DNA of 64,000 nt from Sphagnum compactum (taxonomy: Eukaryota), in contig OZ234494.1 in assembly GCA_965153455.1 (NCBI GenBank), forward strand, positions 3,658,001 through 3,722,000. The letters are read 5' to 3'. Shown piece after piece: positions 4,540 through 50,733 of the stretch. The notes under the pieces are model-generated. The model did not search any database, was not told the DNA's origin, and was given only the letters and a program-made list of their open reading frames with translations. Each line of letters opens with the position of its first letter. The stretch's first letter is position 1. Made by a program: the position numbers and the translations under genes.

Positions 4540-4620
4540 CCCTAAACCCTATAAAAATCATGAACCCTACACACCCCCATGATCTTCTTCTACCCTAAGC
4601 CCCAAACCCTAAAACCCTAT
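4540..4620 (+). promoter_or_regulatory. Telo-box (AAACCCTA) cluster upstream of the SMYD gene start
   Basis: ctaaaccctat (~4542) and ccaaaccctaaaaccctat (~4602-4620) lie 100-180 bp upstream of the ATG at 4724. Telo-boxes are known plant promoter/5'UTR elements; function here is inferred. Confidence 0.4.
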
Positions 4621-4723
4621 GAGATTGCAGACAAAACCCCCAATAACAACACAACCGTCTCCTTCAACATCCCTTCCAGAAACAATTTTTCGAGGTCCAA
4701 GGGTTAGGTCTGATTGATGGGAG

Positions 4724-9273: not shown

Positions 9274-11689
9274 ATCCCAGGGCAATGGTTTGAAGGGTGG
9301 GAGGTATCACAGTGCACATTCCAAGCTCATCTATAGCTGTACTCTCAAGATTTCCTTCAAGAAAATCCATTAAATGGGTCTCTTTTGTTTGCTCAACACA
9401 ATCTGCCTCTATCCCCTAACCTGCTACATGTTTAAGTAGTTTTTGAAGGTTTTGATTGTGGGCAAACCAAGGAGGACCACCTGGCAGACCACTACTTGCG
9501 TGGGACTTGGAAATTGTGTATGGTACCTGGTTCTGGTGTAGCAGCTCATTATGTTGATTTTGTGTCCCACACTCCAAAGGAATCTGGCAACAAACATGCT
9601 ATTGGATATTGCCCTGGAGATTCATCGGCTGCATGCTGCTCTGAATCTGCCTTTCCATAGGTGTGCTTGTGTGGTCATGATTCAGTCTGGGCATTACAAA
9701 AGTTGTTCAATTGTAGTTTGCAGCTATCCGCAGGTTCTTACAATTCAACATATTCTATGGAGCATCACAAGTGCTAAAGAAGTCCTACTTGGAGTCTTTC
9801 ACATGGGTGTACTGTCCAACAAATACACCATTCTATGGTTTCCAGTACATGGCCACTGTTAACACAACAGCTTTTCAAGCATAAAGATTGTTGATTAGTT
9901 GGTTCAGAGAAATGCTGGCTTACTTGGTAGTATTCTGTGCTAATTTCTTGGTGGGGGTCATTAGAATCAGACTGACTGTTGACCCAAAGAATGGGCTAAA
10001 ACTGCACAAATGGGCTTACTGCATTAAACTAAAAGGTCTTCACCAGATGTCAGATTTGTCTTGGCAAAACAAGTGACAGTGAGAGAGCATGACTAACAAC
10101 CATGTGTTGAATGTTGAAGTTCTCAAGCCTTATTCCACAAAGAAGCATGGATTTCTCTTAGAATTATGTGTCAATTCACAAAATGTAGGTTGTTAGTCAG
10201 GCTTTAAATCTGACATTCACTGCTGTTGTTTGATTGCAATTTTTAAGTTTAAGGTTTGTGCATATCTGAAGAGATCAACAACAATTTGGGTGGGGGTTAT
10301 GCGATGGGTTGGTGACATTTTTCAACTTATGTGCTTTATGTATTAGAAAATCACTTCGGTTCTAATGAAATCTTTTTTTAAGTTGTCACATCTGGACACA
10401 TCAACAAATGAAAGCAAATTATGGTAAATGTAGATGATTTCAACTAGAGCATATGGTTTGAAGATTCTCCATTGTTACATGTATCAAATGCAAGATGCAC
10501 CCCTTTGAATTGGGTGTTAGAAACTCAAGTAGAGCGCTTCCCATTTGAATCTTTAGAAACCTTTGCAGCTAAGTAGTTTCATGCTTTGTTTGTCCATGTG
10601 CATTGTATAGATGAGTAGAAACATAGAAGTTGATAGGGCCATTGCCAAGGAGGCAAATTTGCAAAATGCTCTAAGCAATTCACTCCAAGCAAGAACTTGG
10701 GTATCTTTTTGGGCTTGGAATGTTACAACATGGTCATAGTTTGCAAGCATCATTAGCAATGAGTTTGTCATCTTGGATACATCATAGGATTTTTGTTGCC
10801 TCTGATGTCATGACATTCCTTCTATGTCATCTTAATATCTCAACACATAACTAGATTTAGAAAAGTTGTGATTACACATGTCAAAAAGAATGCTAATAAT
10901 GCAATATTTGCTTTTGTGCAAAGCCACATGTTTGCAGTGCACTTCCACGTGGTCACCATAGGACAAGGACTTTTGTTTCTAATCCATTCCATCATGCATC
11001 CCAAGTTGTCTACATATATTCTTGAGAGCTGCCAATTTTAGAACTTTATGTGGATGATACTTGTCATTCTTTTCAATGTGTGCATCCTAGAACCACAAGC
11101 AACAAAGGTTAATTGTAGATCGCTCCAAATTAGATTTTCATCTATGTTGTGTTTGTAATGTGGGTTCCTTTCACATTGAATAGTGAAAAAAATGGTTCTC
11201 CAAAATGAAGCACATGTCATGCTTCACTTTTTTTTCTCATAGTTGAAGATGGTCCATTTTTCAATACATAAGATCTTAAATTTTTCCTACCAAGTGTTGT
11301 GTCAAACATGTCTCATGAGCTTTGTAATGATACTTTGAAGATTCCTAATTAGGTCTCTCCAACTTTGCCATAAAGAATATTGTTTTGAAGTAGAGATGCA
11401 TTTCAACACACATTGCTCTTGTAGATTAATAGTACTAGGTAGACAAAATTGCAAGGGATTGTCCATAATTTTCAAGATGTTTAATATAATTTTTTTGATG
11501 TGTGCACCTTGATTTGGGTGTGTTCATATATGTGCAAAGTGAATATGGTTTGGGTGTAGCTCATGTTAGAATTTCCATGTGGAAAAGGAAGAGGGAATGT
11601 CGCATGAGAATATCACTTGTGCAAAGGCAACAATAAGAGTCATTGAGGGTAATAAGAAGAGATTGATAACCATTGAAAAAAAGTTTAAA

Positions 11690-17392: not shown

Positions 17393-18826
17393 GGTGCAAC
17401 TTGATTGATTTACAACACAATGAAGATGAAAAAACTAGCTTGAAGAAAATATAATACCATAGAAGTGAAGACACAAAGAAATAACTATGAGTTGCAAGAT
17501 GTATTACTAGCAAAATAAGCCAAGCAACACGTTGCATGATGCATCAACTTATACAAAAAAGGAAAAAAACTAAACTAATGTTAAAAATACTACTAGATTT
17601 TGTTTAAAAAATTACTTGAAGTTTATCATCACCATCACTATGGTTCGATCATAACTTTAGTCATTGTGAAATCACCATGAAATCATTAGTGATCTACCAT
17701 AAGTTATAATCATTACAAATGTTCCCACAATTTGTTCAAAATAAATTGACTTGAAACTAATTAATCACTTTATCTCTAACATGAAATGCTTTTTGATAGT
17801 GTGCCTTGACACAAATGTCACCCACCCACAAAGATGAGCCATAGATAGTGGAAAAGGTGAAAAGATGTTGAAGGCATGCCAAGGTTAAGTTCATTCCTAG
17901 ATCCAGTAGCAAATCCTTTGGGTGGGAAATAAGGCTGAAAAGTTTTGCATCATTGACTAATTCCATGTCTTGAGACCATACATTCAATCACTTCTGTCAC
18001 ATGTTGGATCCATTGCATTCTTCAACAACCTGTTTTGGCCCCCCCCGACCACTGTAACTTTGCTATGGAGTTATTATTGTCCACTGCTCCAATACAAGCA
18101 AACGTACAGGGCAAAGGAGAAAGGAGGAAAACAATTCAGGATTTCAGCTCTAAGGTGAAAATCTTGAGCTATCAGGCAGAATTCCCACTAGTAAAGTATA
18201 TTTAACTCACATTCACAGACCAAAAGCACCCAGTTTCCAGAACACAGTTTCTGGAAGTGTAATCACAAGAGTGAGACAGTCTGGGAGACATGTGGACTGC
18301 ATGTCGCATCAAACCTTCACACAAAAGCTTGAATGACATTTAAAATAAGGTGGAGTGACTTAAATCAGGTTGCCCCTGCTTACTAATGTACATATAGCAA
18401 AATGCCATACAAAGACTACAAGTTCCAGTTTCCTATGCCAATGTGCACCCCCTCCTCCACCCCCCTTTCAACTTCTATTTGTGTTTGCTTCATGCTGGTG
18501 GCACTATTCCCAGCCATAAGCTGAACTGCAAAATGTCACCCTTGTTCACAGATACCTGCCCTTGCAAGCATGCCTCCAGTTAACATAAGGCATTCATCCT
18601 TGCCATGATTGCTTCTATCCAGAAACATCTCATTCTTTTCATCTCCACCAACACTTGCAGCTACTTATGAGTCAACATGCTTCACACTGACCTTTCTCTG
18701 GTATAATGCCTCCTCAGTCATGCACAAGGATAAGAATAGTGCTGGAGGCTTGGAGACTGTTGAGAGGACAAGGTCTAGTCTTCAAAAGTCTTCAAAAGTG
18801 CTACGTGTAGGCATATCTTTCTTCTA

Positions 18827-21800
18827 TTATCCCTGCCCCTTAAACAAAAACGATTCAGTTACAACAAAAAGCACTGAGTCCAACTCACAAAAGTTATCTT
18901 TCCAAGACAGCATCCTGCTCCATAGCAAGAATATAGGCAACAAGCAGCAAACAAAATTGAGCTAAAAAATTACCTTAACTGTGCGGGGAGGTGTGCCTGG
19001 TCTTGCTGCATTGTTGCCATAAGTGCCAAATTTTTGTTTCTTCTCAGCAGGCTTGAGAATTTGAAAGGAGCACATGAGAGTGTCATCAACACTCATCATT
19101 GCTCCAGCATTGTCAAATTCACCACAGTAGTTTGGAGCAGAGAATATAGTAACAAGCTGGCGCTTTGCGAAAAACTCATAACCATCCTCAACTACCTGCA
19201 CCAACAATGCATTTGTCAACTCAAGACAGGAAGATCAACCCTTGGTTTCCTATAACTTTTTTTACCAACCAACCACACCTTTGGATACACCTAGCTTATC
19301 TTTAAACTTAGAAACTGCAGTTGGGGCAGAGTTTGCCACCCTTTTCAGCAAGGTCTGCAAAAGAGCAAAGGCTCTTCTGCAGATAGGGCTCTTTCAGTAT
19401 TCCTGTTAGGGATCCTGAGACTAAGGCAACAACGCCATAATTATGCTCAAAAGCCAAAAGCAGTGATGTATCTGTCATTTCTTGTTCTTCATTAAGGCCT
19501 GCTTCCATTGAAACATAGGGGCAGTTCACACTTGAGTGTTTGTCCCATGGCCCATGGAACCACATGGTACCCCACTTTTTGGATGAGTTCATGGCAAAGC
19601 CCACAGGTCATGGCCCAAGGGACTTTGTTCCTAGTGTAAACCTGAATTGGAACAGAGAACACACCATAGAAAACCTCATGATTGTAGGGGTGGTGACTTT
19701 TGGGGGCTTCCCCCAAAAGTTCATTCCAACTTCACCAAACTAGAAAATTCATAACAACTAATAAAGTACTATAAATTGTTGACTCTGATTTTTTGGCTGC
19801 CATGGGCTGCTGCAAATTCCATCAGACCCACCTTAAAAATTCCCCTGCATTGTTGGACACCATCTATTTCAGCCATGTAGGATTCCATGTGGATCTTTCA
19901 TCCACTGCGATTTGCTTGGGCTGCGACCTATAACTACCCTAGTGTAAACATAAAGCAAGAGCCCAAGGCTGTGGACCAATGAACAATATTAGATTTCAAT
20001 GGGCCATTGCCCAACTGCTCAAGTGTAAATTGCCCCTTAGTGCAAAGTCTCATCCACAAGGTCTGTTTTGGAATCTAGGAAATTTTCATGAGCACTTCCC
20101 ACCCAGATTTAAGATCTTGTGATCCAGAAACATCTTGTTTTAGGTGGTTTGGCATTTTAACAGTCACACTGTCTCCATCAGAGACATCCCACAAATTGAG
20201 CCAATGAAAGCCACTGCTGGACAAGGACAAAAATAAGAACACAAGTCTAGTTTCAGCAACTGATGCTTTTGGCAACTCTTATTGACTGCCTACAAAGCAT
20301 TTGCTTGTGGCTACATGCAAAGAACTCTTTGTCAAGGAGTTCCTTCTTAGAGACTGGAAGGTATGCAGGGGTGTTTCCTCCTGCAACCTCTAATCCCTTT
20401 TCATAGTTAGTAAAACATCTCTGAAACACAGATCCTTCAGTTGCAGATTTCTCCTTGGATTTTTGGTTAGTACTTGCTCTGAGTGTAGAGCCCCTTGCTT
20501 CCACTTGTTTTGCAAGGTTACAGCAACTACATTTTTGCTCCTGAATGTCCCCAGATATGTTCTTAAATTGAAGATAGAAGAAGATGAATGGTGGGGAGAA
20601 GGAAGTGGGTGAGGGGTTTGGAGGGGTGGGGGGGGGGGGAGGATATGGGGGCATTCGAAAACACACCTGATGTGCTCTGCAGATGAGATCCAAGTCATGT
20701 TTCTGGAGGAAGTCTGAGACTGTGTCTGGACCAAATGTGAAGGAAACACCTCGGTCATTTTCTCCCCAACCTGCAACTTCTTTATCAGGGTCTGCCCATA
20801 GCAGATCACACAATAGTCCAACATCCGGTACATCAGTTGGCCGGGCAATTTTCTTAATCTGGTCCAAGTTCTTGAGATCAGGAGAAAGGCCCCCATGCAT
20901 ACACAGAATCTTCTCATCAATCAGAGCAGCCACAGGCAAACAGTTGAAGCAATCTGTAAAAGTCTTCCACAAGCGGATGTTGAACCGACGCTTACACTCA
21001 TCGTAGAATCCATATATCCGGTTGATTGAGGCACATTCATGGTTACCCCTCAATAAGAAGAAGTTTTCAGGGTACTTGATCTTATATGAGAGGAGAAGGC
21101 AAATGGTTTCTAGACTCTGTTTCCCACGATCCACATAGTCCCCTAAAAACAAATAATTTGCTTCTGGAGGAAAGCCACCATACTCAAATAGCCTCAACAG
21201 GTCTGAATACTGCCCATGGATGTCACCTGCAAATTTACACCCGCAAATTCTCTCAAGCTTGTTCGTAACATGGTAGATCAATTCAATTCAAAATGGCCAA
21301 TACACCTGATTCAATGCTCATATGCAACATGTCTGGTATTGCTTCTTAATGACAATGAGATAGAAACCCTGCAATCTCACATGTTTAGAAATTAGGGCAA
21401 AAATCTTTATTTTCTCACCATGCGTATATCCAGTTTACCCAAACTTTCTCTCCCTCAGCACAAGAATCAAAAGAAGCTGACAGGTCACAGACTACAAGAA
21501 AGCCAATGCTGTGCTTCAAACCATGCAACAACTACCACCTGTTTGCACAAACATATAAACTGTGTAATGTCCTAATGCAATCCTCCGTGAGCTGCTGGTA
21601 AATGAACAAAATTTGAGGCGGCCAGTAACTGCTGAATGAAATACAGCAGATATACCAAAAAAACTACGTCAACACAACATTCACGAGAGTGATCCGCGGT
21701 TAATATCCACCACGACCATGGATAAATGCTCCTGAGGCCTTTCTGACCATTTCCCGAAAGTTGCTCCAGGCGTATTGAGTGAAAAGACGAGACGTACAAG

Positions 21801-22065
21801 AGGGAGGGAAAAAAAGAAATGACAAAACCAGGGACAAAACCTTCCTCCTGAATGCTTGCCGAGCGCGAAGGGAAGGGGATAACCTACCACAGATCTTGAT
21901 CGGAGCTTCAAGCTCGAGGAGATTCGGCTGGGCAAGGAAGATGTCCTTAGATGCTAGACATAGCTGCCGAATCTCCGCCTCCGACAGCTGCACCTGCTTC
22001 CCGGGTCTGCCGCTCCGCACATCAAGCAGCCTAAGTATGATGTCGTCCAGAGTCGTACTATCCAT
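18827..22065 (-). CDS. PP1: Serine/threonine protein phosphatase 1 catalytic subunit (TOPP/PP1c), 4 exons, ~323 aa
   Basis: Exons 22065-21888 ([17 protein letters not shown]), 21226-20667 ([22 protein letters not shown], ..ICRAHQ), 19195-18974 ([34 protein letters not shown]) and a probable terminal micro-exon 18838-18827 (GQG*). Splice phases are consistent and all PPP signature motifs are intact. Confidence 0.96.
19518..20036. mobile_element. Tourist/PIF-Harbinger-like MITE in PP1 intron 2
   Basis: Left ggggcagttcacacttgag..catggcccatggaac and right gatttcaatgggccattg..ctcaagtgtaaattgcccc are ~45-bp imperfect TIRs starting GGGG. Flanks are ata / tta, compatible with a degenerate TWA target duplication. 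Confidence 0.6.
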
Positions 22066-23204
22066 CCCTGCTTTTCCTCCCCCTCCCCTCCCTCCCGGTT
22101 GGCGTCTCGTTCCCCGTCCCTTCCCTCCTCTCGATGCTCTCCGGGTTCCTTCCCTCAACTACAACGAATCCGTTTCGCCGATTCTTTTCACAAACCGGAA
22201 AAACCAGTACGAAGAAGAAGAACCAGAAGCAGCAGAAGAAGCAGAATAAAACATAGATGTTGCTTGGGGTAAGACGAACACAAAATAAAAATGGCACACA
22301 GAACTGGCCACAGTGGGCAGCTAGGGTTGACAAAACGCTCCTCGGTACAGGACTGCGGTAAACCGCGCAAGAGCAGAAAGATTCAAGAAAGGAGCAAAAC
22401 CGGATAGGCCAACCAAGAAGAAGAGGAAAGAGAGATCGCGACAGCAGGCCTTACAGGAATACAACGACGACGAAGAAGAAGAAGAAGAAGAAAAAGAAGA
22501 AGAAACAACGAGAGCGCGCCACCGAAAGCAACAAACAAACGAGCAAACAATCAAAGCCGCAGAAGGGACAGTAGGAGCAGCTCAAACAAACGGCCTCTGG
22601 CACCCAAAATCTACCAATTTGCTAGATTCCATCTCCTCGTCCACCTCCTCCTAAATCTACTAAACACTAGCTTATCACATTCTGTATCTAGCAATTGAGT
22701 GGATTGTACAAGATCTCCAGAAGGATCTAAATAAACCTAACCTAATTAATCAGTTACGTAGTTAATTATCATTTCCCAATCATGGTTAGGACTTGGAACT
22801 TGGGTTGGTTGGTTGGTTAGTTTGAGAAAGGGGGAAAAAAAAAAAACAGAGTAAAAAAGTACTGTGATAACTCTAGGTATCTTTAGGAACTCTTAGGCAG
22901 GAGTATGGTAAAAAATTAGCCGAGGTAAAAAATGGTGACAAATAGTTTTAGAAAAAAAAATGATTCAGCCAATGAGAAGGCTCAAAATGCCCCCCTTTTT
23001 TTTCCTTTTCTTTTGGGTTTGGTGGTGAGAGGGATTTTTTAGTTTTTTCTTCTATTCCCGATGTGTTCCTCAAAGATGTTACCAACCGCACCACCACGCT
23101 TTTATCCCGTATGCTTTGGCCAAAATTGAACTTTCATGGAAATCAAATCTAAAGATTGGCCAAAGTGAAGCACCTTTGTGCTTTTATTTTGGCGGAAGGA
23201 GGGG

Positions 23205-25570: not shown

Positions 25571-26669
25571 ATCTAACACATGAATGAATAGGGAGACCAA
25601 AGGCAAGGGGGTGGAGTTCAATTGAAGTTGCATTGAGCCAAGATGATCACAACATGAGTTGTGTTCCACACCTTAAGCTTGTCACATACCATGCAAATTT
25701 GAAAACATCTCAACCTATAATCATGAAAAACAAAGTAATCTTTGTGCAAACCTTCGATTCAGGTGAGGTCTAAAACAAAGTTATATCTCTTGTCGAGATC
25801 TTTCCAACGGTATGTGGCACAATGAGGTGTCAGCTCCCTTGCACTCTTGGAGCTCCAAATGGAAATGATGAGAGCAAAAATCATATAGAAAATTTGATGG
25901 ACTTCTTCTTCAAAACCTAGTCCATTTACACTTACCTCTTGCCAAAGACATTTACGTGGGCCATGTAAGTGTAAATGAAAATCTTTTTATATTTTCTTAT
26001 GTAAATGTAAAAGAAAGCACCTATTGACATACAAGGTAAAATGTAAATCCCAAACGTGTGGTTGTGATCTAAGGGTGAGAGATAGGCTAAGATGATGATG
26101 GGTATTGAGCATTCTGCACACATTCATTCTATTGCATACAATTGTTGATGGGAGGGGAGGCCGATTCCGCTCTGTTGTGGCCAGATTTGGAGCCCAAATT
26201 GACCTCTCCTTGCTGATTCTGCAGAGGTGCAATTCTGCAGAGTTCCCTAAGAGTTCCCCAAGACTTTCCACGAGTTCCCCAACAATTCCCAACCTTTAAC
26301 ATGACTCAACGGCTGCCCAGGGTGAATATCGGGTACTAGCATGTCCCTTGCCCGTTATTAGGCTGCGGGTGAACCGGCACCCACTCTGGTACCATCTCTC
26401 GTACAAAAAAAAAAAGAGAACGGCATGGTGTCTCGCAGTTTTGTAACTGACCGAACGGAGAATCTCGATGCTCTGATTGGCTATAAGGTCACGATTTTTT
26501 TCATACACATAATAACCTTCAACCAATGGCACCAACATGCCCCCGGGATGTTTCTTATTTTTTTTGAAGGGGTGAGCCAATTGGGTGGTGCAAACATGCC
26601 TCCAAGGGATGTCTATTATGTTTTTGAAGGGGTGGGTGCTTGATTTCCCATAAGTTCCCAAATAGTTGT

Positions 26670-27062
26670 TCTGTTCCCATTAGTATCCCATCAAAATCCT
26701 TTTGTTCTTGTCAAGTTCCCAAACAATTTCCATCAAATTCCTCTTGTTCCCAATAATAACCCATCAAAATTCTTTTGTTCCCATCAAGTTTCAATCAAAT
26801 TCCTTTTGTTCTCATCAAGTTCCCAAACAATTTTCATCAACTTCCTCTTGTTCCCAACAATGACCCATCAAAATACTTTTGTTCCCATCAAGTTTCAATC
26901 AAATTCCTTTTGTTCCCATCAAGTTCCCAAAAATTCTCATCAAATTCCTCTTGTTCCGATCAATAACCCATCAATATCCTTTTGTTCTCACCAAGTTCCC
27001 GCACAATTCCCATCAAATTCCTCTTGTTCCTATCAAGTTTCCATCAAATTCCTTTTGTTCTC
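26670..27062. repeat. Tandem minisatellite with a 104-bp higher-order period built from ~11/21-bp (T)TCCCATCAA / TTCCTTTTGTT subunits
   Basis: tcaagttcccaaa recurs at 26711, 26815 and 26919 (period 104). Subunits cccatcaaattcctcttgtt recur throughout. Confidence 0.85.
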
Positions 27063-27084
27063 ATGGCTATGGAGGATAGGCAGG

Positions 27085-27392
27085 TTTTCATCCGTTGAGG
27101 GAACACATCAAAATCGTAGTCAGTTTTCCATCCATAGTCAAAATGCATCCAACAAGAAGCTTTCGTGCATCTGCGTTCATCCACGTTACAAATTTGTTAA
27201 CGTAACCATCCATCTGAGCTTTATTTATTTCAAGCAATTATGAGCATGCGATATTTTTCATCCGTTCAGGGAACACATCCGAACTTGTAGTCAATTTTCA
27301 TCCATGGTCGAAAAGCAATCCAACAATAAGAAGCTGTCGTGTATCCATTTTCATCCACGGTCATCTGTTACACATCTATTCGAGCTTTATTT
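27085..27392. repeat. Imperfect ~140-bp direct duplication (period ~170) upstream of hslU
   Basis: ttttcatccgttgagggaacacatc..ccaacaagaagct..gagctttattt (27085-27226) versus ttttcatccgttcagggaacacatc..ccaacaataagaagct..gagctttattt (27255-27392). Confidence 0.75.
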
Positions 27393-27681
27393 GGACCACT
27401 ATTATCATCCGTTTTGAAAGCGCATCATCGAAAGTGGCCGGCGAGATATCGACTGGAAACCTTGAGTCCGTGTTCTCATCACACCGGAAAGCACACACCG
27501 CAGCGTAGGCGGGTACTTTCAGATCTGGCGCAGAATCGCAGAAAGATTCTCCAACAATTTTGCTGCAAATCGCCAGCAAAAACCACTGACGGAAGGCGAG
27601 GGTTGCAGGATTATTTCTCCAATTGATTCCAGTGATTTGCGGTGGACAAGAGAACAGAGAGAAGTTGGAGTGGTTGGTGCC

Positions 27682-30600
27682 ATGGCGACCTCGGTGTACA
27701 GGCTACTGTTCCGGCAGAGTATGAAACCTGGGGTTGTCAGAACGGGTAGCTGGAGATGGGCTTCATCTCCCTCCTTTTCGACGTGAGTTCTCATGTTCCA
27801 CCCATCACCCCTTGTTTTGGACGTGTGTGTGTGTGTGTTTTTTTTCTTAGGGCCGGGGAGGGGTTGTCTATCATGGTTATGGCTCGCCTTTTCGTGGTGT
27901 GACTTGACCATGTATGGGAAGTATAGGTAGAAGTTGGACAACAGATTTGAGAAGGAGTCAGTCGGTCACCATTTTGTGCCACTAAAGATTTACGGAGCTC
28001 AAATCCTCCTGTGGTGCAAAATACCTTCGCCTAACCTAATAGCTTTTGATCTCAACCCTAATTAGGGTTCGATCTACACAAATAAGATATCTGAGACTGG
28101 TATGACCAGAAATTGAGTGGGAGAATGTTACATAACCTTGTGTGGAATGGGAGAATATGTGTGACTTCTTTTCTCATTCAAGTGTACATGTATCTGAATG
28201 GGGTGAATGCAGATCCGTCCAAAGGGATACCACAACTGAGACTGAGCTACCAGTGGTCACCACCAGTGCTCTTGAACCAGGTTTGTAAGATGAAATGCAC
28301 AGGTTCGCAGATGTGTATTGAGTAAAATGACTGCCCTGGTAGAAGTTTTTATGATTGGAATAGTGTTAAGATGCGATTGTGGATGGCAGATGAGGGAGGA
28401 GAGGATGCGCTAACACCAGCCAAGGTGGTAGAGATGTTGGACCGCTACATAGTTGGGCAACGGGAAGCTAAACGGGCGGTCGCGGTGGCACTGCGTATGC
28501 GCTCCCAGCCTCTTGTCTGACCTGCTTCACAAACTGGTGGGCTTATGGCTGTGTCCTAAGTCCTTATCTACAGCCACACATCTCATCAGTGCTTCACCCC
28601 CATCACTCTAGTACACACACTTATGTATCTCTGGGCTCTTCCCTTCTTGAACCATGAGTCAACTCTATCATTCTTGTATGGAATCTTCACTAAGTCTTCA
28701 TACAACCTTTTTTTGGGTGAAGTAAATTTGGATCCAAACAGGTCTGATTGCAGTTGTCAGCCCATCAGATTTGTGTAGATTTTTTCTGTGGTCGTTCAAA
28801 ATGTGAATAATGGAGAAACTGGTTTGAATTCCAATCTGCAAAATCTTTTCTTCTCTCTCTGATTTCCCCAGTTTATATGAATGAAGATGCATGGATTCTC
28901 TGCCACTGCAGGAAATAGATGGCGTCGTCATCGGATTCCCGAGGGGCTAAGGGAGGAGATTGTGCCAAAAAATATACTCATGATTGGCCCAACTGGTTGT
29001 GGGAAAACTGAAATTGCCCGGCGCCTTGCCAAAATAGCATATGCACCTTTTGTCAAGGTATGCCATCTTGTGTTTGAGCATCATAGAGATTGCACCATGG
29101 TATTCAATTGTGTTGTGCTGATTTTGATAGTGGATTTCTCAAAGGTCTGCATGTGTGAAAAGTTCTCAGGATTTGGCACAGAAGTTTTCAGAGTTTTGGA
29201 CTGCCTGTTGGATCCCTCTGTGCAATTTTACCCCTTCACTGTTTCACTTGCACATGGTAACAAGTGGGGGAAAATCTATGGAGGCGTTCAGTTCTAGTTG
29301 GAGATGCTTTGGGAGACTTGTATACTAACAGTAGTTAGTGGGCCAGGTGGAGGCAACAAAGTTCACTGAAGTAGGCTTCCATGGCCGAGATGTGGACCAG
29401 ATTATCAGAGATCTAGTTGACAATGCAATTTCTCTGCAACGTCAGAAGGTATCTACTTGGCTTTTTACAGCATGGCATGATTGCTTATTGTAGGATCCTG
29501 GTGTGGATTTGTGACAGCTTGTTGGCACTCAAAAACTTTGACACTTTGGAAGGAGAGCACTTGGATGTGCTAGGCCATTTTCCATCCTCATTACTTCCAG
29601 CTGGACGTAGACTTTTGGAAAGTTCTTAGCTATTTTTGTGTCTTTCTTCAAGTTGATTACACTCCATGATGTCTGATTGCCGTAATGAGGGCTGCATGGT
29701 TTGGTTGTTTTATGACTTCTAGGTCCTTAAAAGGATTTATGATGTTGGATTTTTCCTTATTCTGTTATGAATGTGCAGGTGCGAGCAAGGGTGGGAAAGG
29801 AGGTAGAGAAAGCTGTGGAGAATCGAATTGTCAACATGGTAGTGGGTCAACAGTGCCCTGCTGAGGTTAGATTTCAGTCTCTTATCACATCAAGTTTTCC
29901 TGCAGTGGTAAAACCTGAACTTCCCTGCTGGACTGATGGGTTGGATTTGTAAGCTGTGAGGCATGTATTTTTACTGTATTCAGCTAATCTGTAAACCCAT
30001 TTGTTTGGATCTGTAGAAGTTCAGTGGTATTGGCAAAAGCCCATAACAGGGCTGGGAGATGATCTTTGCGGTGTGGTAGATGATTCATATTTACTTCTTT
30101 ATGAGCAGGGTGATGCAAATGTAGAAGCACCCCCTGAGAACAAAGAGGAGGTCAGAAAGCTGTATTGTGAAGGTGCACTTGACAATCGGAAGATTCAGAT
30201 GGATGTGCCAGATGGAAGATCACGTCCTTCTGTTGAGATTATTGGTGGTGGCAGTGGTTTTGCAGTTAATGAGCTTATTCACAGGGTATGTGACTGTAGT
30301 GTAGATCTATTTCAGGCTTTATCTTCTTTTTCTTTCACAGCCTGGATCTGATGCTTTGTTATCAATTTATGCATTGACAAATTGTTTGTGGTGTAGATGG
30401 AGAAGGTATTCAAGGCCCAGAAATTGGAGAGGCAGGAGATGACCATTAGAGAGGCAAAACCACTCCTGATAGAGATTGAAATGGAGAAGTATCTGAACTC
30501 AGATCAAATAAGCAAGGATGCAATTCAGGTCAAAAGTCCCATTCTATCTCTTTGCATGTCATGTTTGTGTCAAAAATTGAACCTAGAACAGTGTTTCTGA

Positions 30601-32470
30601 ACCCTGAACTTTAGAAATGATTCTATCTTCCTGCATACTCAGAGTTAACCAAAAAGAACTGAGGCTTGAAGACTAAGCTGAAAGCTAGAGGTTTGGGAAC
30701 CATCCCTGTGCCAAGTCGTGAATAGAGGGTTGTCTTTCTTTTGTGAGTCAGTTTTTCTGAAGTTGGGTTGGGGTTGGATGAGCAGTTAGCAGAGTCAGAT
30801 GGAATTGTGTTCATCGACGAGATTGATAAGATTGTCACAAATCATGAGACAAGACACGGAGCAGATGCAAGCTCTGAAGGTGTACAAAGAGATTTACTGC
30901 CAATTATTGAGGGCAGGTAGAACTTCAGTTCGCAATTTACAAAGCTTCTTTAGCGACTCTTGCTCGAGCCTTGCTGCTCTTTTCTCTAATTATCTCACTG
31001 GGTATGGGTGTTTTAAAAGTTTGAAAACCCATGCTTGTGATCTGTTAATCTTATCAGTGGGAATCATTTCTGACGTCTGGGCTGTCATGTCTCTCCTGTC
31101 AGTATGTTACAAACAGGCATGACTCCTGTGCTATGCATTCTGCCTTCTGCTTTAGACAACCAAGGTCTTTTATGGCTATTAATCACTCACCTGCTTTCCA
31201 GCAAATAAACTAGCACATCTTTGAAGGATATGTTAAGAGTTTTGCTGGAACTGACAGAATGGTTACCTTCAAAGTGTCAGTGTGGAGTTTTCTCTGCACT
31301 CACACAGATATTTCTATGTGGGTTGTAGGTCACAGAAAGGTCATGTAATGTCCCTGCACTCTGCATTTCCATCTTGTTATGTGGGATTTACATCATGATT
31401 TGCATTGCAAAATGATGGGTGGTGGGGATGGGATGATGCAGTATAGTGTCAACCAAGTATGGTAATGTGAACACGGATCATATCCTTTTCATTTGCAGTG
31501 GTGCCTTCCATTCGTGTAAACCTAGTGACATGTTGGCAGAGTTGCAAGGGCGCTTGCCAATTCGTGTTGAGCTCAAAGGCCTCACTCGTGAGGTACAGCA
31601 ATCCAATTTGCAGATTTACACAAATCATGGTGTTGTTATCATGGACATAGACTTGTGTCAACTTCAAGCCTATATTCAACTCTGGAATGTGTGGGGCTGA
31701 TGGTGCAGGACCTTTATCGGATATTGACGGAGCCTGAGACAAATATGATTAAGCAGCAACAATTGCTGATGAAAACAGAAGATATAGACTTAGTATTTAC
31801 AAGTGAAGCAATTCATGAGCTGGCTGCTGTTGCTGCTGAGGTACAGACTACAGACAGGGTGTCACCCCAAATTTCTCTTTCTCTTCTTCTCAGGATATGG
31901 TGTGGAGAGATTGCCAGAGATTGATGAGAGTTTGTATGTAATTGAACAGGTGAACAGGTCAGTTGACAACATTGGTGCCAGAAGGTTGCATACGGTACGT
32001 GCTCATGCTTTCATTCTCAAATCATTTCCTTTGTACTTTAGGGTACATGGAGTTGGTATATGGATGATGTGTTTTATATGCAGTAAGTGAGAAGTTTCAG
32101 GTGTGGAGCTTACTTCTTGCAGATTCTTGAGAGGGTCGTGGAGGATATAAGCTTTCATGCCCCTGAGAGGGCAGGTGACACTTACACTGTTGATAAAGAG
32201 GTCAGTTATGTGGTATTTATCTGGCCTCTTTGGCATGTTTTGTGGTATTTATCTCTTCAGTTCTCAAAGTGGATTGCTGAAATTACTGCCTACTGATGTT
32301 GTTTAGTTGTGACCATGCTTTGGAGAGGTGGCTACAGGCAAGCATTGTCTCTCATGTAGCAGGGAATGCTAATGAGCTCATTGATGCATTATTCTTTGTG
32401 GTGGCAGAAAGTGAGGCAATCTGTGGGAGATCTTCTTCACAAAACTGATCTTTCAAGGTTTGTCCTATGA
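27682..32470 (+). CDS. hslU: ATP-dependent protease ATPase subunit HslU (ClpY), nuclear-encoded, predicted mitochondrial; 14 exons, 505 aa
   Basis: Exons 27682-27782, 28213-28280, 28390-28494, 28912-29057, 29347-29448, 29779-29865, 30109-30285, 30397-30528, 30786-30916, 31442-31592, 31709-31840, 31950-31994, 32123-32200, 32408-32470 give 1518 nt with phases closing. Motifs: [34 protein letters not shown], Walker [25 protein letters not shown], Walker [44 protein letters not shown]-terminal DLSRFVL*. Confidence 0.95.
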
Positions 32471-33299
32471 GGTGGTTGATGAATTGACCATAGGGCTCCA
32501 TTAGGGTTTCCTTATTTATGAGGAGCAGCAGCTATTATAATGAAAAAAGGAACCTGCTCACTGCTACCCATGTCACTGATCAAAGTGCCTTGGTTACTTG
32601 GTGAATTGACAAGAATATGCAAGGCAGTCAAGAGTTCCTTCTGATGCAACCAGCTTCCTTGCTGTATTGTTACTCCTTTCAACATAAGGCAGCATTTGGA
32701 CTGTAGGTTTCTAGAATGGATGACAAATCTGGAGATCTCTCTCTCTCTCTCTCTCTCTGGTAAGATGTCTAATGAGACTCTTGATTGACAATTGGTTAAG
32801 CTCAATATGATGCATTCTCGACAGTATTGAAATGTGACTGCATGGAATAGGTTTGTAGATTGCAGCAGCAACAGTTTCTCTGTCATGAGCTTGTGTTTGA
32901 CAAAAGGAGTGCTTGCAGTGCGATCTTGTGCCCTGATTAATGAGACCAAGTAACAAAGGCTGCTGCTACGCTATGGTGCTATGCATATTTGTAGAAGTCC
33001 ATGGTATTTGATGATGTGAACGTTGAGAGTTCAGAGGAAGATGGAACAAAATTATAGCTACAAGAGACATCAAGGATTGTAAATATTGAAAGACAATGTG
33101 TGACCAATTGGATTGTGACAAAAATTTGCTCAACACAGAATATTATCACGACTTTGCATGGGACAAACATTTTAGAGGCGGTTGCAATTATAATCAAATG
33201 AGCCAATAGTAACAAAGGATTCACGCACAAATGAGCCTTTTATGATCATTTTGACTTTTTCATTAAAAGGAAAATTTGAAGGATTTTTTCTTCAACATG

Positions 33300-42555: not shown

Positions 42556-43803
42556 TTTATCCCTACCTTAGGCCATTCAATATGGGTTTTGATTTAGGCT
42601 GACCTAGGTTGACCTTATCCTAATGTGACATTGGGTTGCATTTGTGTCCAAATAGATGTGTCATGTTGCAATTGACGTTGTGACAACCCTGTTTTATTTT
42701 GGACCATTTGACAAAAATCATTAGTCAATCTTTGTTAGTCATAGATTTTGCTTATGGCAATTGTGTTGACCAAATGTCATGGAATTTTTGACAAAGTTCA
42801 TAATTCTACTTCTTGACAACAAATTCTTGAATTTTAGGCACATGTTCCAAATCTATGAGATTTGTAGTTCAACAACATTGGTTGGATCAATAGCCTTTAC
42901 ATGCATTTTAAGGGGTTATTGTTTAGGGGGAAGTAGGAATTCTAGTCCCAAATAGGGCCTTATACCTAAAGTTTTAGTGGGGCCATGACAAACTTACAAA
43001 ACAAAACAAAAATCTAAGAAAAGGATCAACAATTAAACCAATCAAATTCACAAATCAAACCTCCGAATTTCAATGTTGAAAACCATGTCAATTCACAAAT
43101 CACAAATCACAAAATGGAAATTATTTTGAAAATGAAAACTTGAATATTTTTATAAAATCATGGCCATGGTCATGGGGAATGAGTTTGTGATTTGTGGAGT
43201 TTCAAATTTGGATTTTGGAGCTTTTGCTACACCAAGTTTGGGCTTGTAAGTTGGAAGTTTAGGGACTAAATGTTGTAGGTTATAATCATCTATGGTGACC
43301 TCTTGGGATTGAGTCCTTGCATTCACTATATGTGTTGTAGTGTAATTTTGAACAATCCTTTGGGCCCCACCATGACCTCCCCATGTTCATTATAGGCATA
43401 ACGACACAATAGGCCCCCCACAATCCATTACCCTTTAACAAATCAACCTACATTATGTAGGTTACTCAAATTCACCCACCCTTGGGACATAGTACAAATC
43501 CATCACAACAACACATGGGCCTATTCATTGTTCATGTTGTTAATTTACAAAAATGTTACAAGCTTCAAGGTTCGTTGCTCCAAACTTCGAATTACAACTT
43601 GTTACAATGTGCACATAACGCATTTAGACTTCAAACTTGAACTATATATGCAAAGTTCAAAAAAATTCAAAACAATTACAACTCAAGCAAACTTGCAAGA
43701 TTGCAAGTTCCCTCAAGTAGGGTGAGAGCACATTAAATGTCGTAACCCCAATCTTGAGAGAGTGTGAGGATGAAGACTCACACTCCCGAAATGGGAACTT
43801 GGG

Positions 43804-44623
43804 TGACGCACTCCTTGGTCCCGGGGTGAACCCACTTGAGGGTTCACCAATGTGAAGTTGCGGAAAGTTGGGACCAAAGGGCACGCTCCCGACTTCCAAC
43901 TCTAGAAAGGGGTAGAGGGTCAAGTTGGAAGCCCCGGGATTAGACTAGGAAGATGGACTAGTAGATCAAGCACGAATCTGCATACAAAACCAACCACAAA
44001 TGGGTTAGTTCACATTCGGGAACAGCCTTGGGTGTTGGGACAAGCCACGGGCACTTTGGACTACTTGACTCACCACGGCCCGGACTCGGGGGAAGCCACC
44101 ACCTTCCCCCTTATAGTATTCTCTGCAGCTCACCACGGAGGCTACATCCAAATGGCACATTTTCTTGGGACTCCCGAAATGGAGTCCCGAAACTGTCCTG
44201 GTGGGACTCCCGGAACTTTGAACGGTCATAACTCTCGATTCTGGAGTCCGATCACAACGAGGTCTAAACCAAAGTTGTAGCCCTCGTTGAGATCTTTCCA
44301 ACGCCATGTCGCACTCCCTCAGGCGACGTCGGGAAAGGGTCGATTCCCGACTTTTAGTGGTCGGGAGTCAAACTGCCAGTTTGACTCCCGGCCTTTCTTT
44401 TGCCCATAACTTGGGCTGCAGATGTCCGAATGGCCAATGCGAGGCCATTTTCGATATCTACGTTTCAAGACCTTTCCAATGACACCAAGAACACCTCAAT
44501 GCGAGGTGTTTTGGGCCTTGCTGTCGAGCTCTGAACATTCGGGAGTCCCGGAGGACTCCAAGTCTCCAACTTTTCCAAGTGTTGGGCTTCACCCCCACAC
44601 TTGGACAAAGTGGGGTTGCGACA
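43804..44623 (-). repeat. 3' LTR of the gypsy element
   Basis: 820 bp; on the minus strand TGTCGCAAC..GCGTCA. 16 substitutions versus the 5' LTR by manual comparison. Confidence 0.95.
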
Positions 44624-44635
44624 CTCTCCCCCACT
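44624..44635 (-). promoter_or_regulatory. Polypurine tract (PPT)
   Basis: Plus-strand ctctcccccact reads AGTGGGGGAGAG on the minus strand, immediately before the 3' LTR. Confidence 0.85.
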
Positions 44636-45402
44636 AGAAGAAAGAAGTCAATGTCCTCATTGACACTTAGAATTTTCCTTCATACAATTTCAATTGCTTT
44701 CTTTTGGATCCTCGGCCATTTGCCGACTCTTTGCGACTAGGACCTTGTCTCAAGCTAACTTAGGCGTCCCCAAGTTTCCAACACTTTCTTGACAAGTCCA
44801 AGAGGGTCTTGTAGGAAACCCTCTTCCTTTGCTTCGTCAAAAGACTAAACTAGCCTAATTGACGAAGCCCTCATTTGGGAGGAACCTTTTTCCATCCTTC
44901 CCCTCATGAGGACTTAAGTCAAGTCTACTCTTGACCTAAGCTATTTGACATGACTCCTTTCCCTATCTTGCGCCTTGGTCACAACAACCAAGTCTTAACT
45001 AAAAGATTTGCTTATCAAGGTACGAGAAAGAACACCTAGGTTTGCCAAACCCAAGTCCCAAACTACACTTAGAGTATGTGAGCGGGGTCATGACTTCCCG
45101 TATTGGCCACACTACCAACCAACCCTTCGGGATGCACTTAAGGCATGTGCATGTCCCCGCAAGCTCACCTTGCTTGCCTCTTCCCTTGGGGCCAAGTTTC
45201 CTCAACCCCAAAGTAGGAGTCCGATTTTGATTTGGGCCTACGCAAAAAAGTTCCATTTGTCCATGCCACAACCCTATTTGCCTTAACAAATTTTTCATGA
45301 TACAATCTCTTGGAAGTTTTAAAGCCCTTTTTATTTCACTTGCAACTTGATGTGGTACATTTTATGAAACTCTCCCCCTCTAAAAGAAAGGTGATGTCTT
45401 CA

Positions 45403-48400
45403 TCACGCTCTACGTCTTTTCTTCGCCGGTCTAGTGTGGAATTCTTCTATGGCTTCTTGGGCATGTTCCATGTCGGATTCGTTCACCCAAGAAGCCTCTA
45501 TTGCATGGTAACCTTTCCACTTAACTAAGTATTCCCGCTCTCGCCCTCTAAGTTGCCTTGATTTGAGCACGGCCTTTACTTCAAACTCTGGTTCATTATG
45601 AACCAAGTCCGGTGGAGGCCTTGAATGATGCTCTCTATTAGGCCTTGAGGCGTCGTGGGAGACCGGCTTCAAAAGGGAAACATGAAATGTGGGATGAACT
45701 CTAAGATTTTCCGGTAATTCTAATTTATAAGTGTCGGAAAGTTTCTTTTCCAACACTTTGAATGGACCCGCATATGGGCCCATAAACTTATGATTTAACC
45801 GTTCGGGCAACCGGAAGTTCTTGATGTTCAACCACACCTCGTCTCCTTCTTGAAACTTCACCTCTCGTCGGGACTTGTCCGCAAAATCCTTGTACCTTTT
45901 GTGCGCCTTTTCCAAGTTGGCTTTTGCCAACTCCCATAAGCGCTTCCTTTCTTCATCAAGTTGTGTGACCATTAGCACTTCCTCACTTGCATCAATCGAA
46001 GGTTGTCCTTGTGCGGCCCAAGTCATGGGCACAATTGGTGACTTGCCCGTCACCATTTGGAATGGGGTGGATCCCGTTGCGGAGTGTACCGAGTTGTTGT
46101 AACAAAACTCGGCTAACTCCAAATGATCCACCCAATCTTGTTGATCCGCCGGCACATAATTCCTTAGGAATTGTTGGATCACCAAGTTCACCCTCTCGGT
46201 TTGTCCATCGGTTTGGGGGCGGAATGAAGTGCTCATCTTGAGTTCCAACCCCATTCGCTTCCACAAGGCCCTCCAAAACTTACTCATGAACTTTGGATCC
46301 CGATCCGACACTATGTCCTTTGGAAGGCCATGATGCTTGAAAATGTGGGAGAAGAACAACCTCCCCGTCTCTTGAGCCGTGGCTTCATCCTTTGTGGGAA
46401 TGAAGTGTGCCATTTTGCTAAATCGATCCACCACAACCATGATGGCATCGAACCCCTTTGAAGGGGGCAAACTTACCATAAAGTCCATTGACACACTTTC
46501 CCACGGCCCTTCGGGAATTGGCAAAGGTTGCAACAAACCCGCTTGCTTCTTGTTGAGGGTCCGGTTTTGTTGACAAGTTAAACAAGTCTTCACGTACTCC
46601 TCCGCATCATCCTTCAAGTTGGGCCAATAGTAGGACTTCTTTAGGAATGTTGTGGTGCGCTTTGCACCACCATGGCTCGCAAGCGGTCCATCGTGACATT
46701 CCTTCAAAAGTGTGTCCCTAATTTTCCCTTCCGGCACATAGAGTCGGTTTTGCTTGTACCACAACAATCCATTTTTCAAATGGAAGTGGGACTTGGCTCC
46801 ATTTTGGATGCTTTGCCTTGCTTCCTTGGCAAAAGCATCCCAGCGGTTTGCTAATCTAACTTCCTTTTGAAGTTCCGACTCTCCCACATACACCACTCTA
46901 AGTTGGTGTTTCCGGCTCAAGGCATCGGGGACTATGTTCTCCTTTCCCGGCTTGTGCCGGATGTCCACATTGAACAAGGCCAATGTGTCTTGCCACCTTT
47001 GTTGTTTTGATGACAACTTGGGTTGAATTGCGAAGTACTTCAAGGTCACATTGTCGGTCCACACCACCACATCTTTGGAGCCTATGTAATGGCCCCAAGT
47101 CTTGAGACAATGTATGACCGCCCACATTTCCTTCTCGTGAGTTGGCCACCTTCGCTCCGTCTCACTCAACTTCTTGCTTTCAAAGGCCACCGGTCTTCCA
47201 TCTTGCACTATGACACCCCCAATTGCAAAGTCGGAGGCGTCGGAATGGATTTCAAACTCCTTGTCAAAGTCGGGCAACTTCAACACCGGCGCCTTCACCA
47301 AAATGCCCTTCAATGTTCCAAAGGCTTCGTCGCATGCTTCATCCCAATCATAAGTGACGGCGGACTTCTTCAAGAGGTTTGTCAAAGGAGCCGTTATTCT
47401 CACAAAGTTCTTTATGAACTTGCGATAATAGGAGGCCAATCCTAAAAAGGATCTCAAGGCGGGAACCGAGTTAGGCGGCTCCCAATCCAAAATCGCCTTG
47501 ACCTTGTGATCATCCATCATCAACCCTTCTTGAGTTATCCTATGCTCAAGGAAATCCACTTCCGTCACCCCAAATTCGCACTTCTCGAGCTTGGCATACA
47601 ACTTGTTTTCCCTTAGCCTTTGGAACACCTTGCGAAGGTGCTCCGCATGCTCCTCCATGGAGCTACTATAAATCAAAATGTCGTCTATGTAGACGACCAC
47701 AAAATCATCAAGCCATTCGCGGAAAATGTCATTCATGAGGGTGCAAAATGTTGCGGGTGCATTGGTGAGCCCAAAGGGCATCACCAAGAACTCATATGAC
47801 CCATACCTTGTGAGACAAGCGGTCTTTTCTTCGTCCCCTTCCGCGATCCTTATTTGGTAATACCCCGAACGTAGATCAATTCTACTAAAAACCTTGGCTC
47901 CCGAGAGACGATCAAATAGATCATCGATGCGAGGTAAAGGATAACGGTTTTTCACTGTTGCCTTATTGAGTGCTCTATAATCCACACACATCCTCAAAGT
48001 CCCATCCTTCTTGTGAACAAAAAGGATGGGTGCCCCATATGGCAACTTGCTTGGTTTGATGTAACCTTTCGCGAGGAGTTCTTCAAGTTGAACCTTGAGT
48101 TCCTTCAACTCCTCGTGGCTCATTCTATATGGGGCCTTGGCGGGCGGTTCCACTCCCGGTATCACTTCAATCGCATGATCAACTCGTCTTCTCGGGGGCA
48201 ACTTTTCGGGCATCACATCTGGGAACTCTTCCAAAACCTTCCTTATGCACTTGGCAGAAGTCACCAACTTGGTGGCTTCCTTGGGCTCATACTCATCCAA
48301 CACCCGCATGACACACATCATGCCAAAGCCCCCCACGAGTTCTCTTTCCCAAGCTTTTCCTAACATAAAGTGGATGGTTGGATCACCCACACAAGGCAAC

Positions 48401-49871
48401 TCATGTGCCTTGACTCGCACAATCCCACTTTTAGATGGGATTCTAACTAACCTATTGTGCCCTTCAATGAGCACATTGTTTTGGGTAATGAATTCCATTC
48501 CCAAAACGCACTCCATTCCACCCAAGGTGGAAACTAACAAATCCACTTTTCCTCTCCAATTTCCTAATTGGAGAGGCACTCCCTTTGCTTGTAGTGTAGT
48601 TGGATGGGGAACCCCATCCGCGAAATGCACCTCAATGGGTGCCTTGAGTTCCTCCAAGTGGAGCTCCATCCTTTTGGCGCTCTCACGAGTTATGAAGTTG
48701 TGAGAAGCCCCTGTGTCCAAAAGACATAAAATTTCCCGCTTAACAATCTTCCCCTTCAAGAAGATAAGTCGATTGCATTCCGGTTGGGCTAGAGTGGCAT
48801 TGAGAGCAAGTACCTTAGAGCTCCCCACTCCCGATTTGGATTTGGGCCAATCTTTGGAGTAGTGCCCCACTTTGTTGCAATTGAAACACGTTCCCTTGGG
48901 TTTTGCTCCAAAATCTCCCTTGGGTTGGCTCCCTTTGAAAAAAGCCCCCTTCTTCACCAAGCTACCTTTTGGTTTGAACCCCGAGCCTTGGAATTGTTTT
49001 GGTTTATCCTTGGTTGGGCTACCTTGCCCCCGGTTCCATTCCCCCTCATGCCTTGGCTTTTTGTGAAGGAACTTGTTGTCCTTCTTGAACCCGGATTTGT
49101 TGCTCCGCCCCACATCCGAGAAGTTCTCCACTTTCGTGATGGCCTCGGATAATGAGGCGGGCCAACTCTCCTCAAGCTTTCGCTTGGCCCAAGTTGGAAG
49201 CCCCATCACAAATTGGCACACACGATCCAACTCGTGCATGTGCCGGATCTCTAACATGAGCTTGGAATAAGCCCTCACATATTGCCTCAAGTTCTCATTT
49301 GTGGCATCACAAGATCTCGGAGCTTGCACCTCGAGATGTAGTCGGAGTTCCTCGGAACAAACTCCGACTCAAGGCGCTCCTTAAAGAACTCCCACGTGTA
49401 GCCATGGTTTTTGCCCTCCTCTTGTCTTACCGTCCGCCACCATGTGGCGGCATAGCCTTTCAAGTAGGATTGGGCAAGCTCCACGGCGGAATTCCGTCCA
49501 ACCTTGGCGGCATGGATATAATCGTCCATTTCCGCAAGCCAAACATCCACCACCTTACGGTCTCGGGCACCATCGAAATTCCCGGGCTTGGCCGGTTGAA
49601 ACCTTTCACCTTTGGAGGTCCCCGTTTTGAGGGCCGCCACCAACTCACCAAAGTCGGGCCTATTCATCTTGAGGAGGACTTCAAGTTGCTCCGGGGTGAA
49701 TAGGACCGAGCTCCGTTGTTCTTCCTCACTTTCGGGTTCAACCTCGGGCTCATCTTGGTCCTCCCGGAAGTTTGGTTCCTCCCCAATTGATTCGGGCGGG
49801 GCTACTAGGTCATCGACGGGCTCCTCGGACCTAAGCTCTGGAGCTAGCTTCTGATTCTTCTTGGGTGCCAT
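45403..49871 (-). pseudogene. gag-pol polyprotein of the chromovirus, broken by a 1-nt frameshift near 49307
   Basis: Gag starts MAPKKNQK at 49871 and stops early at [10 protein letters not shown]. The other frame continues [13 protein letters not shown] into a 1308-aa ORF with knuckle [14 protein letters not shown], protease [21 protein letters not shown], RNase [10 protein letters not shown], integrase HHCC plus SMDF/SDRD/GQTER, GPY/F, and chromodomain [19 protein letters not shown]. Confidence 0.93.
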
Positions 49872-49899
49872 CCCAAAATGTCGTTGAGCTTCACCTTGA

Positions 49900-49911
49900 G
49901 CTCTGATACCA
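49900..49911 (-). promoter_or_regulatory. Primer binding site for initiator tRNA-Met
   Basis: Plus-strand gctctgatacca reads TGGTATCAGAGC on the minus strand, 2 nt inside the 5' LTR end. Confidence 0.92.
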
Positions 49912-49913
49912 CG

Positions 49914-50733
49914 TGACGCACTCCTTGGTCCCGGGGTGAACCCACTTGAGGGTTCACCAATGTGAAGTTGCGGAAAGTTGGGACCAAAGGGCACGCTCCC
50001 GACTTCCAACTCTAGAAAGGGGTAGAGGGTCGAGTTGGAAGCCCCGGGATTAGACTAGGAAGATGGACTAATAGATCAAGCACGAATCTGCATACAAAAC
50101 CAACCACAAATGGGTTAGTTCACATTCGGGAACAGCCTTGGGTGTTGGGACAAGCCACGGGCACTTTGGACTACTTGACTCACCACGGCCCGGACTCGGG
50201 GGAAGCCACCACCTTCCCCCTTATAGTATTCTCTGCAGCTCACCACGGAGGCTACATCCAAATGGCACATTTTCTTGGGACTCCCGAAATGGAGTCCCGA
50301 AACTGTCCCGGTGGGACTCCCGGAACTTTGAACGGTCATAACTCCCGATTCTGGAGTCCGATTGCAACAAGGTCTAAACCAAAGTTGTAGCCCTCGTCGA
50401 GATCTTTTCAACGCCATGTCGCACTCCCTCAGGCGACGTTGAGAAAGGGTCGATTCCCGACTTTTAGTGGTCGGGAGTCAAACTGCCAATTTGACTCCCG
50501 GCCTTTCTTTTGCCCATAACTTGGGCTGCAAATGTCCGAATGGCCAATGCGAGGCCATTTTCGATATCTACGTTTCAAGACCTTTCCAATGACATTAAGA
50601 ACACCTCAATGCAAGGTGTTTTGGGCCTTGCTGTCGAGCTCTGAACATTCGGGAGTCCCGGAGGACTCCAAGTCTCCAACTTTTCCAAGTGTTGGGCTTC
50701 ACCCCCACACTTGGACAAAGTGGGGTTGCGACA
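49914..50733 (-). repeat. 5' LTR of the gypsy element
   Basis: 820-bp direct repeat of 43804-44623, adjacent to the PBS. Confidence 0.95.

Follow-up and report, generated by a model that had tools for sequence, protein, structure and literature searches.

The ATP-dependent protease HslUV pairs the AAA+ unfoldase HslU (ClpY) with the peptidase HslV. ClpY occurs in bacteria (accessible part of PMC7412383), protist HslUV is treated in the accessible parts of PMC1586193, PMC12699882, PMC4106860 and PMC6429459, and the trypanosome HslVU is mitochondrial (PMC2277460, accessible part). According to the available text of PMC4106860, HslU's C-terminal tail acts in HslV docking and activation; in Trypanosoma brucei the Tyr-tailed HslU2 alone activates HslV and the Phe-tailed HslU1 does not. 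Among green algae, Chlamydomonas HSLU1, HSLU2 and HSLV1 are treated alongside mitochondrial chaperones in the accessible part of a preprint (bioRxiv 10.64898/2026.04.02.716084). Plants are said to be without HslUV in the accessible text of a 2020 paper. Here we describe hslU-A, an hslU gene on the forward strand of a 64,000-nucleotide (nt) stretch of the peat moss Sphagnum compactum (GenBank assembly GCA_965153455.1, contig OZ234494.1, positions 3,658,001 to 3,722,000; G000:C2:3658001-3722000 in our numbering), referred to below as the window; the genome assembly comprises 382 Mb in 702 contigs. We concluded, with a probability of roughly 85%, that the product of hslU-A is a nucleus-encoded, organelle-targeted HslU and part of an ATP-dependent HslUV protease whose most likely site is the mitochondrial matrix.

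Organellar HslUV was known already from protists and Chlamydomonas. New here is the peat moss pair of subunits, which corrects a stated range that excludes plants. Our literature search, which left most subscription journals outside and was in part crowded by papers without the Hsl terms, found no paper on land-plant HslUV. As public annotations already contain the genes (an HslU is named in Marchantia), they come as a moderate surprise.

Gene structure, transcripts and motifs of hslU-A

The gene occupies positions 27682-32470 of the window. Its 14 exons, the number given in the first-pass annotation, join to 1518 nt in a single frame of 505 amino acids (aa) plus a stop codon, and the 13 introns (109-525 nt) all carry GT-AG ends. 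The ATG at 27682 is the sole ATG within 27450-27690. The closest named protein, Sphagnum P0006 (505 aa, found with an exon 4 query), is identical at 499/505 positions, with six differences, which marks the plant as a peat moss. The features of the gene are as follows.

27682-27782, forward strand: exon 1, with an Arg/Ser-rich, acid-free N-terminal extension that is a probable mitochondrial presequence, judged from sequence only
27682-27782, 28213-28280, 28390-28494, 28912-29057, 29347-29448, 29779-29865 and 30109-30285, forward strand: exons 1-7
30397-30528, 30786-30916, 31442-31592, 31709-31840, 31950-31994, 32123-32200 and 32408-32470, forward strand: exons 8-14
28495-28554, forward strand: conserved element at the 5' end of intron 3, 56/60 identical to its counterpart in the paralog hslU-B (G000:C10:4958728-4958786)
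28986-29009, forward strand: Walker A, GPTGCGKT, aa 117-124 in exon 4 (coordinates from the exon model)
29374-29385, forward strand: pore loop 1, GFHG, aa 150-153 in exon 5
30810-30830, forward strand: Walker B, FIDEIDK, aa 315-321 in exon 9
32447-32470, forward strand: C-terminal HslV-docking tail DLSRFVL plus stop, in exon 14, aligned to DLSRFIL of 1g3i

Transcription was assessed in 4 of the 23 listed RNA runs, of which X1 and X2 gave identical figures and were counted as one data set. Raw poly-A reads of run X23, listed by species label, contained all 13 junctions (7-28 reads each, on the strand expected for a forward transcript), and 366 of the 442 reads aligned at hslU-A were at least 99% alike; the splicing that had been proposed for confirmation by RNA sequencing is thus present throughout. 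The RNA contigs of run X3 reproduced 12 junctions exactly, with the remaining one displaced by two bases. A minor acceptor in intron 9 (31442-31447), 5 nt downstream, was used in 5 X23 reads vs 26 (5/31 junction reads), and leads to a frameshift with a stop at residue 356. We concluded that hslU-A is a transcribed, spliced nuclear gene. Intron 9 also carries a short dispersed repeat (31238-31300) with related stretches in other loci; a large number of RNA reads that stem from other loci align to it alone.

The encoded protein is, by its sequence, an HslU (ClpY) AAA+ unfoldase. P0006 scored 545 bits against the hslU model TIGR00390 (cut-off 362) over 441/441 positions, stayed under the cut-off for both ClpX models, and could be aligned with solved HslU structures from residue 64 through to its C-terminal end; residues ~170-305 align with the matching stretch of 7mhb and 1g3i, as would be expected for the I-domain. 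Beside Walker A and Walker B, the arginine finger (LQGRLP at 384) and sensor 2 (GARRL at 453) are intact as well. The first-pass annotation had credited the gene with all HslU motifs; this stands for the ATPase motifs and the DLSRFVL tail, with a correction at the pore loop, where the window protein has GFHG vs GYVG in the bacterial matches, the aromatic residue being kept and Val replaced by His. GFHG was common to every named plant and green algal match inspected, and among 220 collected proteins with a pore motif FH occurred in 143 and YV in 77, in a set biased by the queries used. The green-lineage loop may alter the grip on substrates.

HslV, the hslU paralog and the shared intron 3 element

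If hslU-A serves a protease, a peptidase gene should lie elsewhere in the genome, as had been predicted from the window. An intact hslV was found on another contig (G000:C1:30458894-30455914, reverse strand), with nine exons coding for 255 aa: a 59-aa leader with a terminal Gly, then the catalytic Thr1 (residue 60), Asp17 and Lys33. Profile TIGR03692 detected two places in the genome, on C1 and C8, and a full-length HslV relative used as query returned the same two. TIGR03692 was the useful probe, as PF00227 gave 30 matches across the genome with one alone at the hslV locus. The C8 match (L034, G000:C8:6793000-6799500) was considered as a second hslV gene and read as a pseudogene fragment, given its stop codon and its coverage of only two exons. 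HslV was confirmed in peat moss only and was seen in algal gene models.

The hslV reading frame depends on a 5-nt microexon (G000:C1:30457149-30457145; L033 5650-5646, reverse strand). Among the 33 metagenome loci examined, an intron-free contig from a close relative (L059) encodes a whole HslV with 98.4% identity, the five microexon bases included, and the genomic contigs L060 and L061 have the same microexon context. The L059 protein scored 249 bits against TIGR03692 (cut-off 158), passed NF003964 too, and matched Escherichia coli HslV at E 1e-58. An alternative model without the microexon (acceptor 17 nt upstream, reading EPFWWQ) was ruled out, as L059 reads EEHSGQL. The Spirogloea and Closterium gene models depart from the HslV consensus exactly at this site, hinting at an intron or microexon that leads annotation astray. 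A text search of the supplement files of a plant microexon paper (PMC8831610) gave 0 matches among the files covered, which perhaps do not include the data tables. One metagenome protein of 629 aa (P0100) contains both proteasome (PF00227) and HslU AAA domains, a possible HslV-HslU fusion or a read-through gene call.

A second motor gene, hslU-B, lies on C10 (L055, G000:C10 about 4957030-4962709, forward strand). Its frame runs without interruption from exon 2 through the stop codon, ends in DLSKFVL, and shares the intron positions of hslU-A, with equal lengths in 11 of the 13 exons compared; an exon-1-like leader, longer than that of hslU-A, lies upstream. The two proteins are ~81% identical (P0016) while 30/63 four-fold sites differ, and we therefore take both intact paralogs to be under selection. 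Two further hslU copies (L056 and L057, G000:C11:9552000-9560000 and 9604500-9612500) lie ~52 kb apart, have several stops and no match to the first 92 residues, and are 82% identical in nucleotides to hslU-B and 96.7% to each other; by these sequence features they are pseudogenes derived from hslU-B. A match on C203 (L058, G000:C203:14000-22000) was rejected as HslU, being weak (26-36%), nearly intron-free and ClpX-like by our reading; this AAA+ match sits on a 25-kb contig and may stem from another eukaryote in the assembly.

Intron 3 of the two intact genes showed an unusual likeness. Compared between hslU-A and hslU-B, its first 60 nt scored 107 with a best shuffle of 28, and 11 other introns (intron 1 excluded) were at shuffle level; in the genome the element was located at the two hslU genes only. 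Intron 3 is frequently retained in RNA. One RNA contig has introns 1, 2 and 4 spliced out and intron 3 retained whole, and X23 gave only 7 spliced reads at this intron, with a depth of 3.4 in a wholly intronic bin vs 0 in bins of that kind from introns 1, 5 and 6. Read-through meets an early stop shortly beyond residue 99; five database proteins have introns 1-2 spliced and end in intron 3 read-through, and a Selaginella gene model has similar first few residues at the read-through point. The element is possibly a splicing switch, and retention would probably lower or tune the amount of full-length HslU motor. Gene conversion could also produce the likeness between the paralogs. Weighing against a special role of intron 3, some reads fall in intron 9, X1 and X3 contigs retain introns 5, 6, 8 and 9, an Rfam search of 27300-32900 gave no match at E<=1, and the predicted folding of the element did not surpass that of shuffled sequence (z 0.03 to -1.6). 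Its 5' splice site differs from the U12 consensus.

Range, descent and genomic setting

HslU is common to many non-flowering land plants, and HslUV is no peculiarity of the genome described here. The range was drawn from three protein searches and one cluster look-up, by word-based search with most rows nameless. Named HslU proteins came from the land plants Sphagnum, Physcomitrium, Ceratodon, Marchantia, Riccia, Calypogeia, Selaginella, Diphasiastrum, Adiantum and Ginkgo biloba (Gb_31797), and from the algae Chara, Closterium, Klebsormidium and chlorophytes; the nearest clusters in the ESM Atlas were mostly chlorophyte. Among the matches listed (120 of 458, 120 of 7970 and 10 of 10), none of the rows bore the name of a flowering plant or a conifer. 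This suggests that HslU was lost in flowering plants, and the same data say little on conifers or hornworts. The first-pass annotation had placed HslUV in bacteria and in the mitochondria of trypanosomatids and Plasmodium, and outside the angiosperm toolkit; it had not recognized the plant as a moss, and its range missed green algae (Chlamydomonas HSLU1/2 and HSLV1) and many non-flowering land plants.

A tree of 62 hand-picked HslU rows, with fragments and most unnamed near-duplicates excluded, placed the window protein among moss, liverwort and vascular-plant HslU and far from bacteria, in favor of the first-pass reading. Support was 100/99 for mosses, 100/99 for liverworts, 95/82 for bryophytes, 99/91 for lycophytes, 97/96 for vascular plants and 98/89 for land plants, which are nested inside streptophyte algae. 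P0097, which has the GFHG loop, groups with the eukaryote rows, and the hslU-A/hslU-B duplication falls inside mosses. The tree follows the species tree and shows vertical inheritance through green algae and land plants. No bacterial donor can be named from it, because its bacterial rows are the nearest matches only. Ruiz-Gonzalez and Marin are said to have proposed in 2006, independently of the tree here, an alphaproteobacterial-endosymbiont origin of eukaryotic HslUV.

The window contains other plant genes with no link to hslU seen. By their motifs, these presumably include a PP1-type phosphatase (18600-22200, reverse strand), a TPR/SET-MYND-like protein (4600-9300, forward strand) and a B3-domain-like gene (about 62000-63300, forward strand). 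An element whose frames are gag-like and pol-like (the latter of 1321 aa) and whose ends are repeated, which we take to be a long terminal repeat retrotransposon, lies at about 43700-50600 (reverse strand). A low-complexity array of ttcccatcaagttccc-like units occupies 26650-27070, ~600 nt upstream of where hslU begins.

Location, mode of action and comparison with known systems

The probable mitochondrial assignment draws on the leader. In hslU-A an extension of ~63 aa, spanning exons 1-3, precedes the HslU core; 4 Arg, 1 Lys and 7 Ser but neither Asp nor Glu occur among its first 33 aa, in keeping with the earlier description of an Arg/Ser-rich N-terminus lacking acidic residues, and the earliest acidic residue is number 39. 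A basic extension of 57-165 aa was present in 16/16 streptophyte HslU examined. An Arg-2/Arg-3 cleavage pattern occurred in 8/16 vs 3.2 expected by shuffling, among related rows, which makes for modest to weak support. In the accessible part of the PMC8359368 supplement, Physcomitrella A9RCS3 is labeled HSLU and mitochondrion and is one of 7097 proteins that mass spectrometry identified, at ~0.024 uM without vs 0.021 uM with heat priming (quantification p near 1 for both).

In the mechanism that we favor, the basic, acid-free N-terminus would import HslU into mitochondria and would then be removed, the HslV leader being removed likewise. From what is known of the family, a hexameric HslU ring would unfold substrates by ATP hydrolysis and thread them through its pore; the DLSRFVL tails would dock into HslV rings and turn on the Thr1 sites. 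The two motors, hslU-A and hslU-B, would share the single HslV, and the most likely job of the complex would be matrix protein quality control and regulator turnover, beside ClpXP and Lon.

Several observations weigh against this proposal. The hydrophobic moment of the HslU-A N-terminus (0.66) goes no higher than the 95th percentile found along the protein body. Two acidic residues occur in the HslV leader, which is also less typical and longer. The examined part of the Physcomitrella proteome table (PMC8359368) gave no HslV entry. To these are added the GFHG pore loop in place of GYVG and the T. brucei precedent of a Phe-tailed HslU1 that does not activate HslV; both moss tails have Phe, as does the active E. 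coli tail.

HslUV might instead act in chloroplasts, either exclusively or in addition to mitochondria, which we consider unlikely. Ser/Thr-rich leaders in general suit plastid or dual-targeting peptides too, the 59-aa HslV leader fits such a location, and Chlamydomonas HSLU and HSLV increase upon depletion of chloroplast HSP70B (bioRxiv 10.64898/2026.04.02.716084, accessible part). However, an Arg within the first 12 residues was found in 15/16 HslU leaders, and the orthologues of plastid-free protists are mitochondrial. Synechococcus had no HslV-family match in the control set, and a cyanobacterial source is therefore unlikely.

It is very unlikely that hslU-A works on its own as an unfoldase or chaperone, in the manner of the trypanosome HslU1, with hslU-B alone, or neither motor, driving HslV. 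Such a role would account for two motors with one peptidase and for the altered pore loop, and the Phe/Pro-type HslU1 of trypanosomes fails to activate HslV (accessible part of PMC4106860). Against it, both moss paralogs have the same type of tail, and the tail is nearly invariant in the 16 streptophyte proteins (Ginkgo carries Tyr), including liverworts with one copy each found; the duplication within mosses is also independent of the trypanosome pair. The remaining possibility, bacterial contamination, a recent horizontal transfer or a decaying relic, has a negligible chance of being correct: the 54% identity to Acidisoma HslU and the three decayed copies of the system in the genome (two hslU, one hslV) are outweighed by introns that, as the first-pass annotation had argued, speak against contamination and are spliced in RNA, by plant neighbors on a chromosome-scale contig, by a tree that agrees with plant phylogeny and has a long branch to the bacterial rows, and by the signs of selection on the paralogs.

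Descriptions of plant mitochondrial proteases were built on flowering plants; both subunits are present in peat moss, HslU extends to ferns and Ginkgo, and the question is posed of what replaced HslUV in flowering plants. The role and substrates of eukaryotic HslUV, for which parasites have been the main subjects to date, can be tested by knockout in Physcomitrium or Marchantia. A wider scenario is tentative, and we would sooner doubt it than accept it: mitochondrial HslUV would have persisted in bryophytes, lycophytes, ferns and, at the least, Ginkgo and been lost toward flowering plants, non-flowering plants would have a matrix protease system that is missing from Arabidopsis-based inventories, and the peat moss motor would be gated by the intron 3 cis-element (regulated retention with an early stop), possibly in response to heat or proteotoxic stress, as a eukaryotic replacement for the bacterial hslVU heat-shock control.

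Compared with bacterial HslUV (ClpYQ; TIGR00390 and TIGR03692; 1g3i, 1e94 and 1ned), the moss system gives full-length matches above the cut-off for both families and keeps the ATPase motifs, the docking tail and Thr1. It differs in its nuclear, intron-rich genes, which are unlinked on different contigs with no operon, in its leaders, in the GFHG pore loop, in a tail ending in FVL vs FIL, and in having two motors per peptidase. In the mitochondria of Trypanosoma brucei and Leishmania major, HslVU is likewise nucleus-encoded and leader-bearing, with two HslU and one HslV, whereas the moss duplication is independent and both moss tails have Phe; as the moss is without kinetoplast DNA, a role in minicircle replication control cannot carry over. 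Chlamydomonas HSLU1/HSLU2/HSLV1 and the streptophyte algal HslU belong to the same gene lineage and share the GFHG loop. Unlike these algae, the moss is a land plant with moss relatives tractable by gene targeting, and its genes show the conserved and retained intron 3 and the 5-nt hslV microexon.

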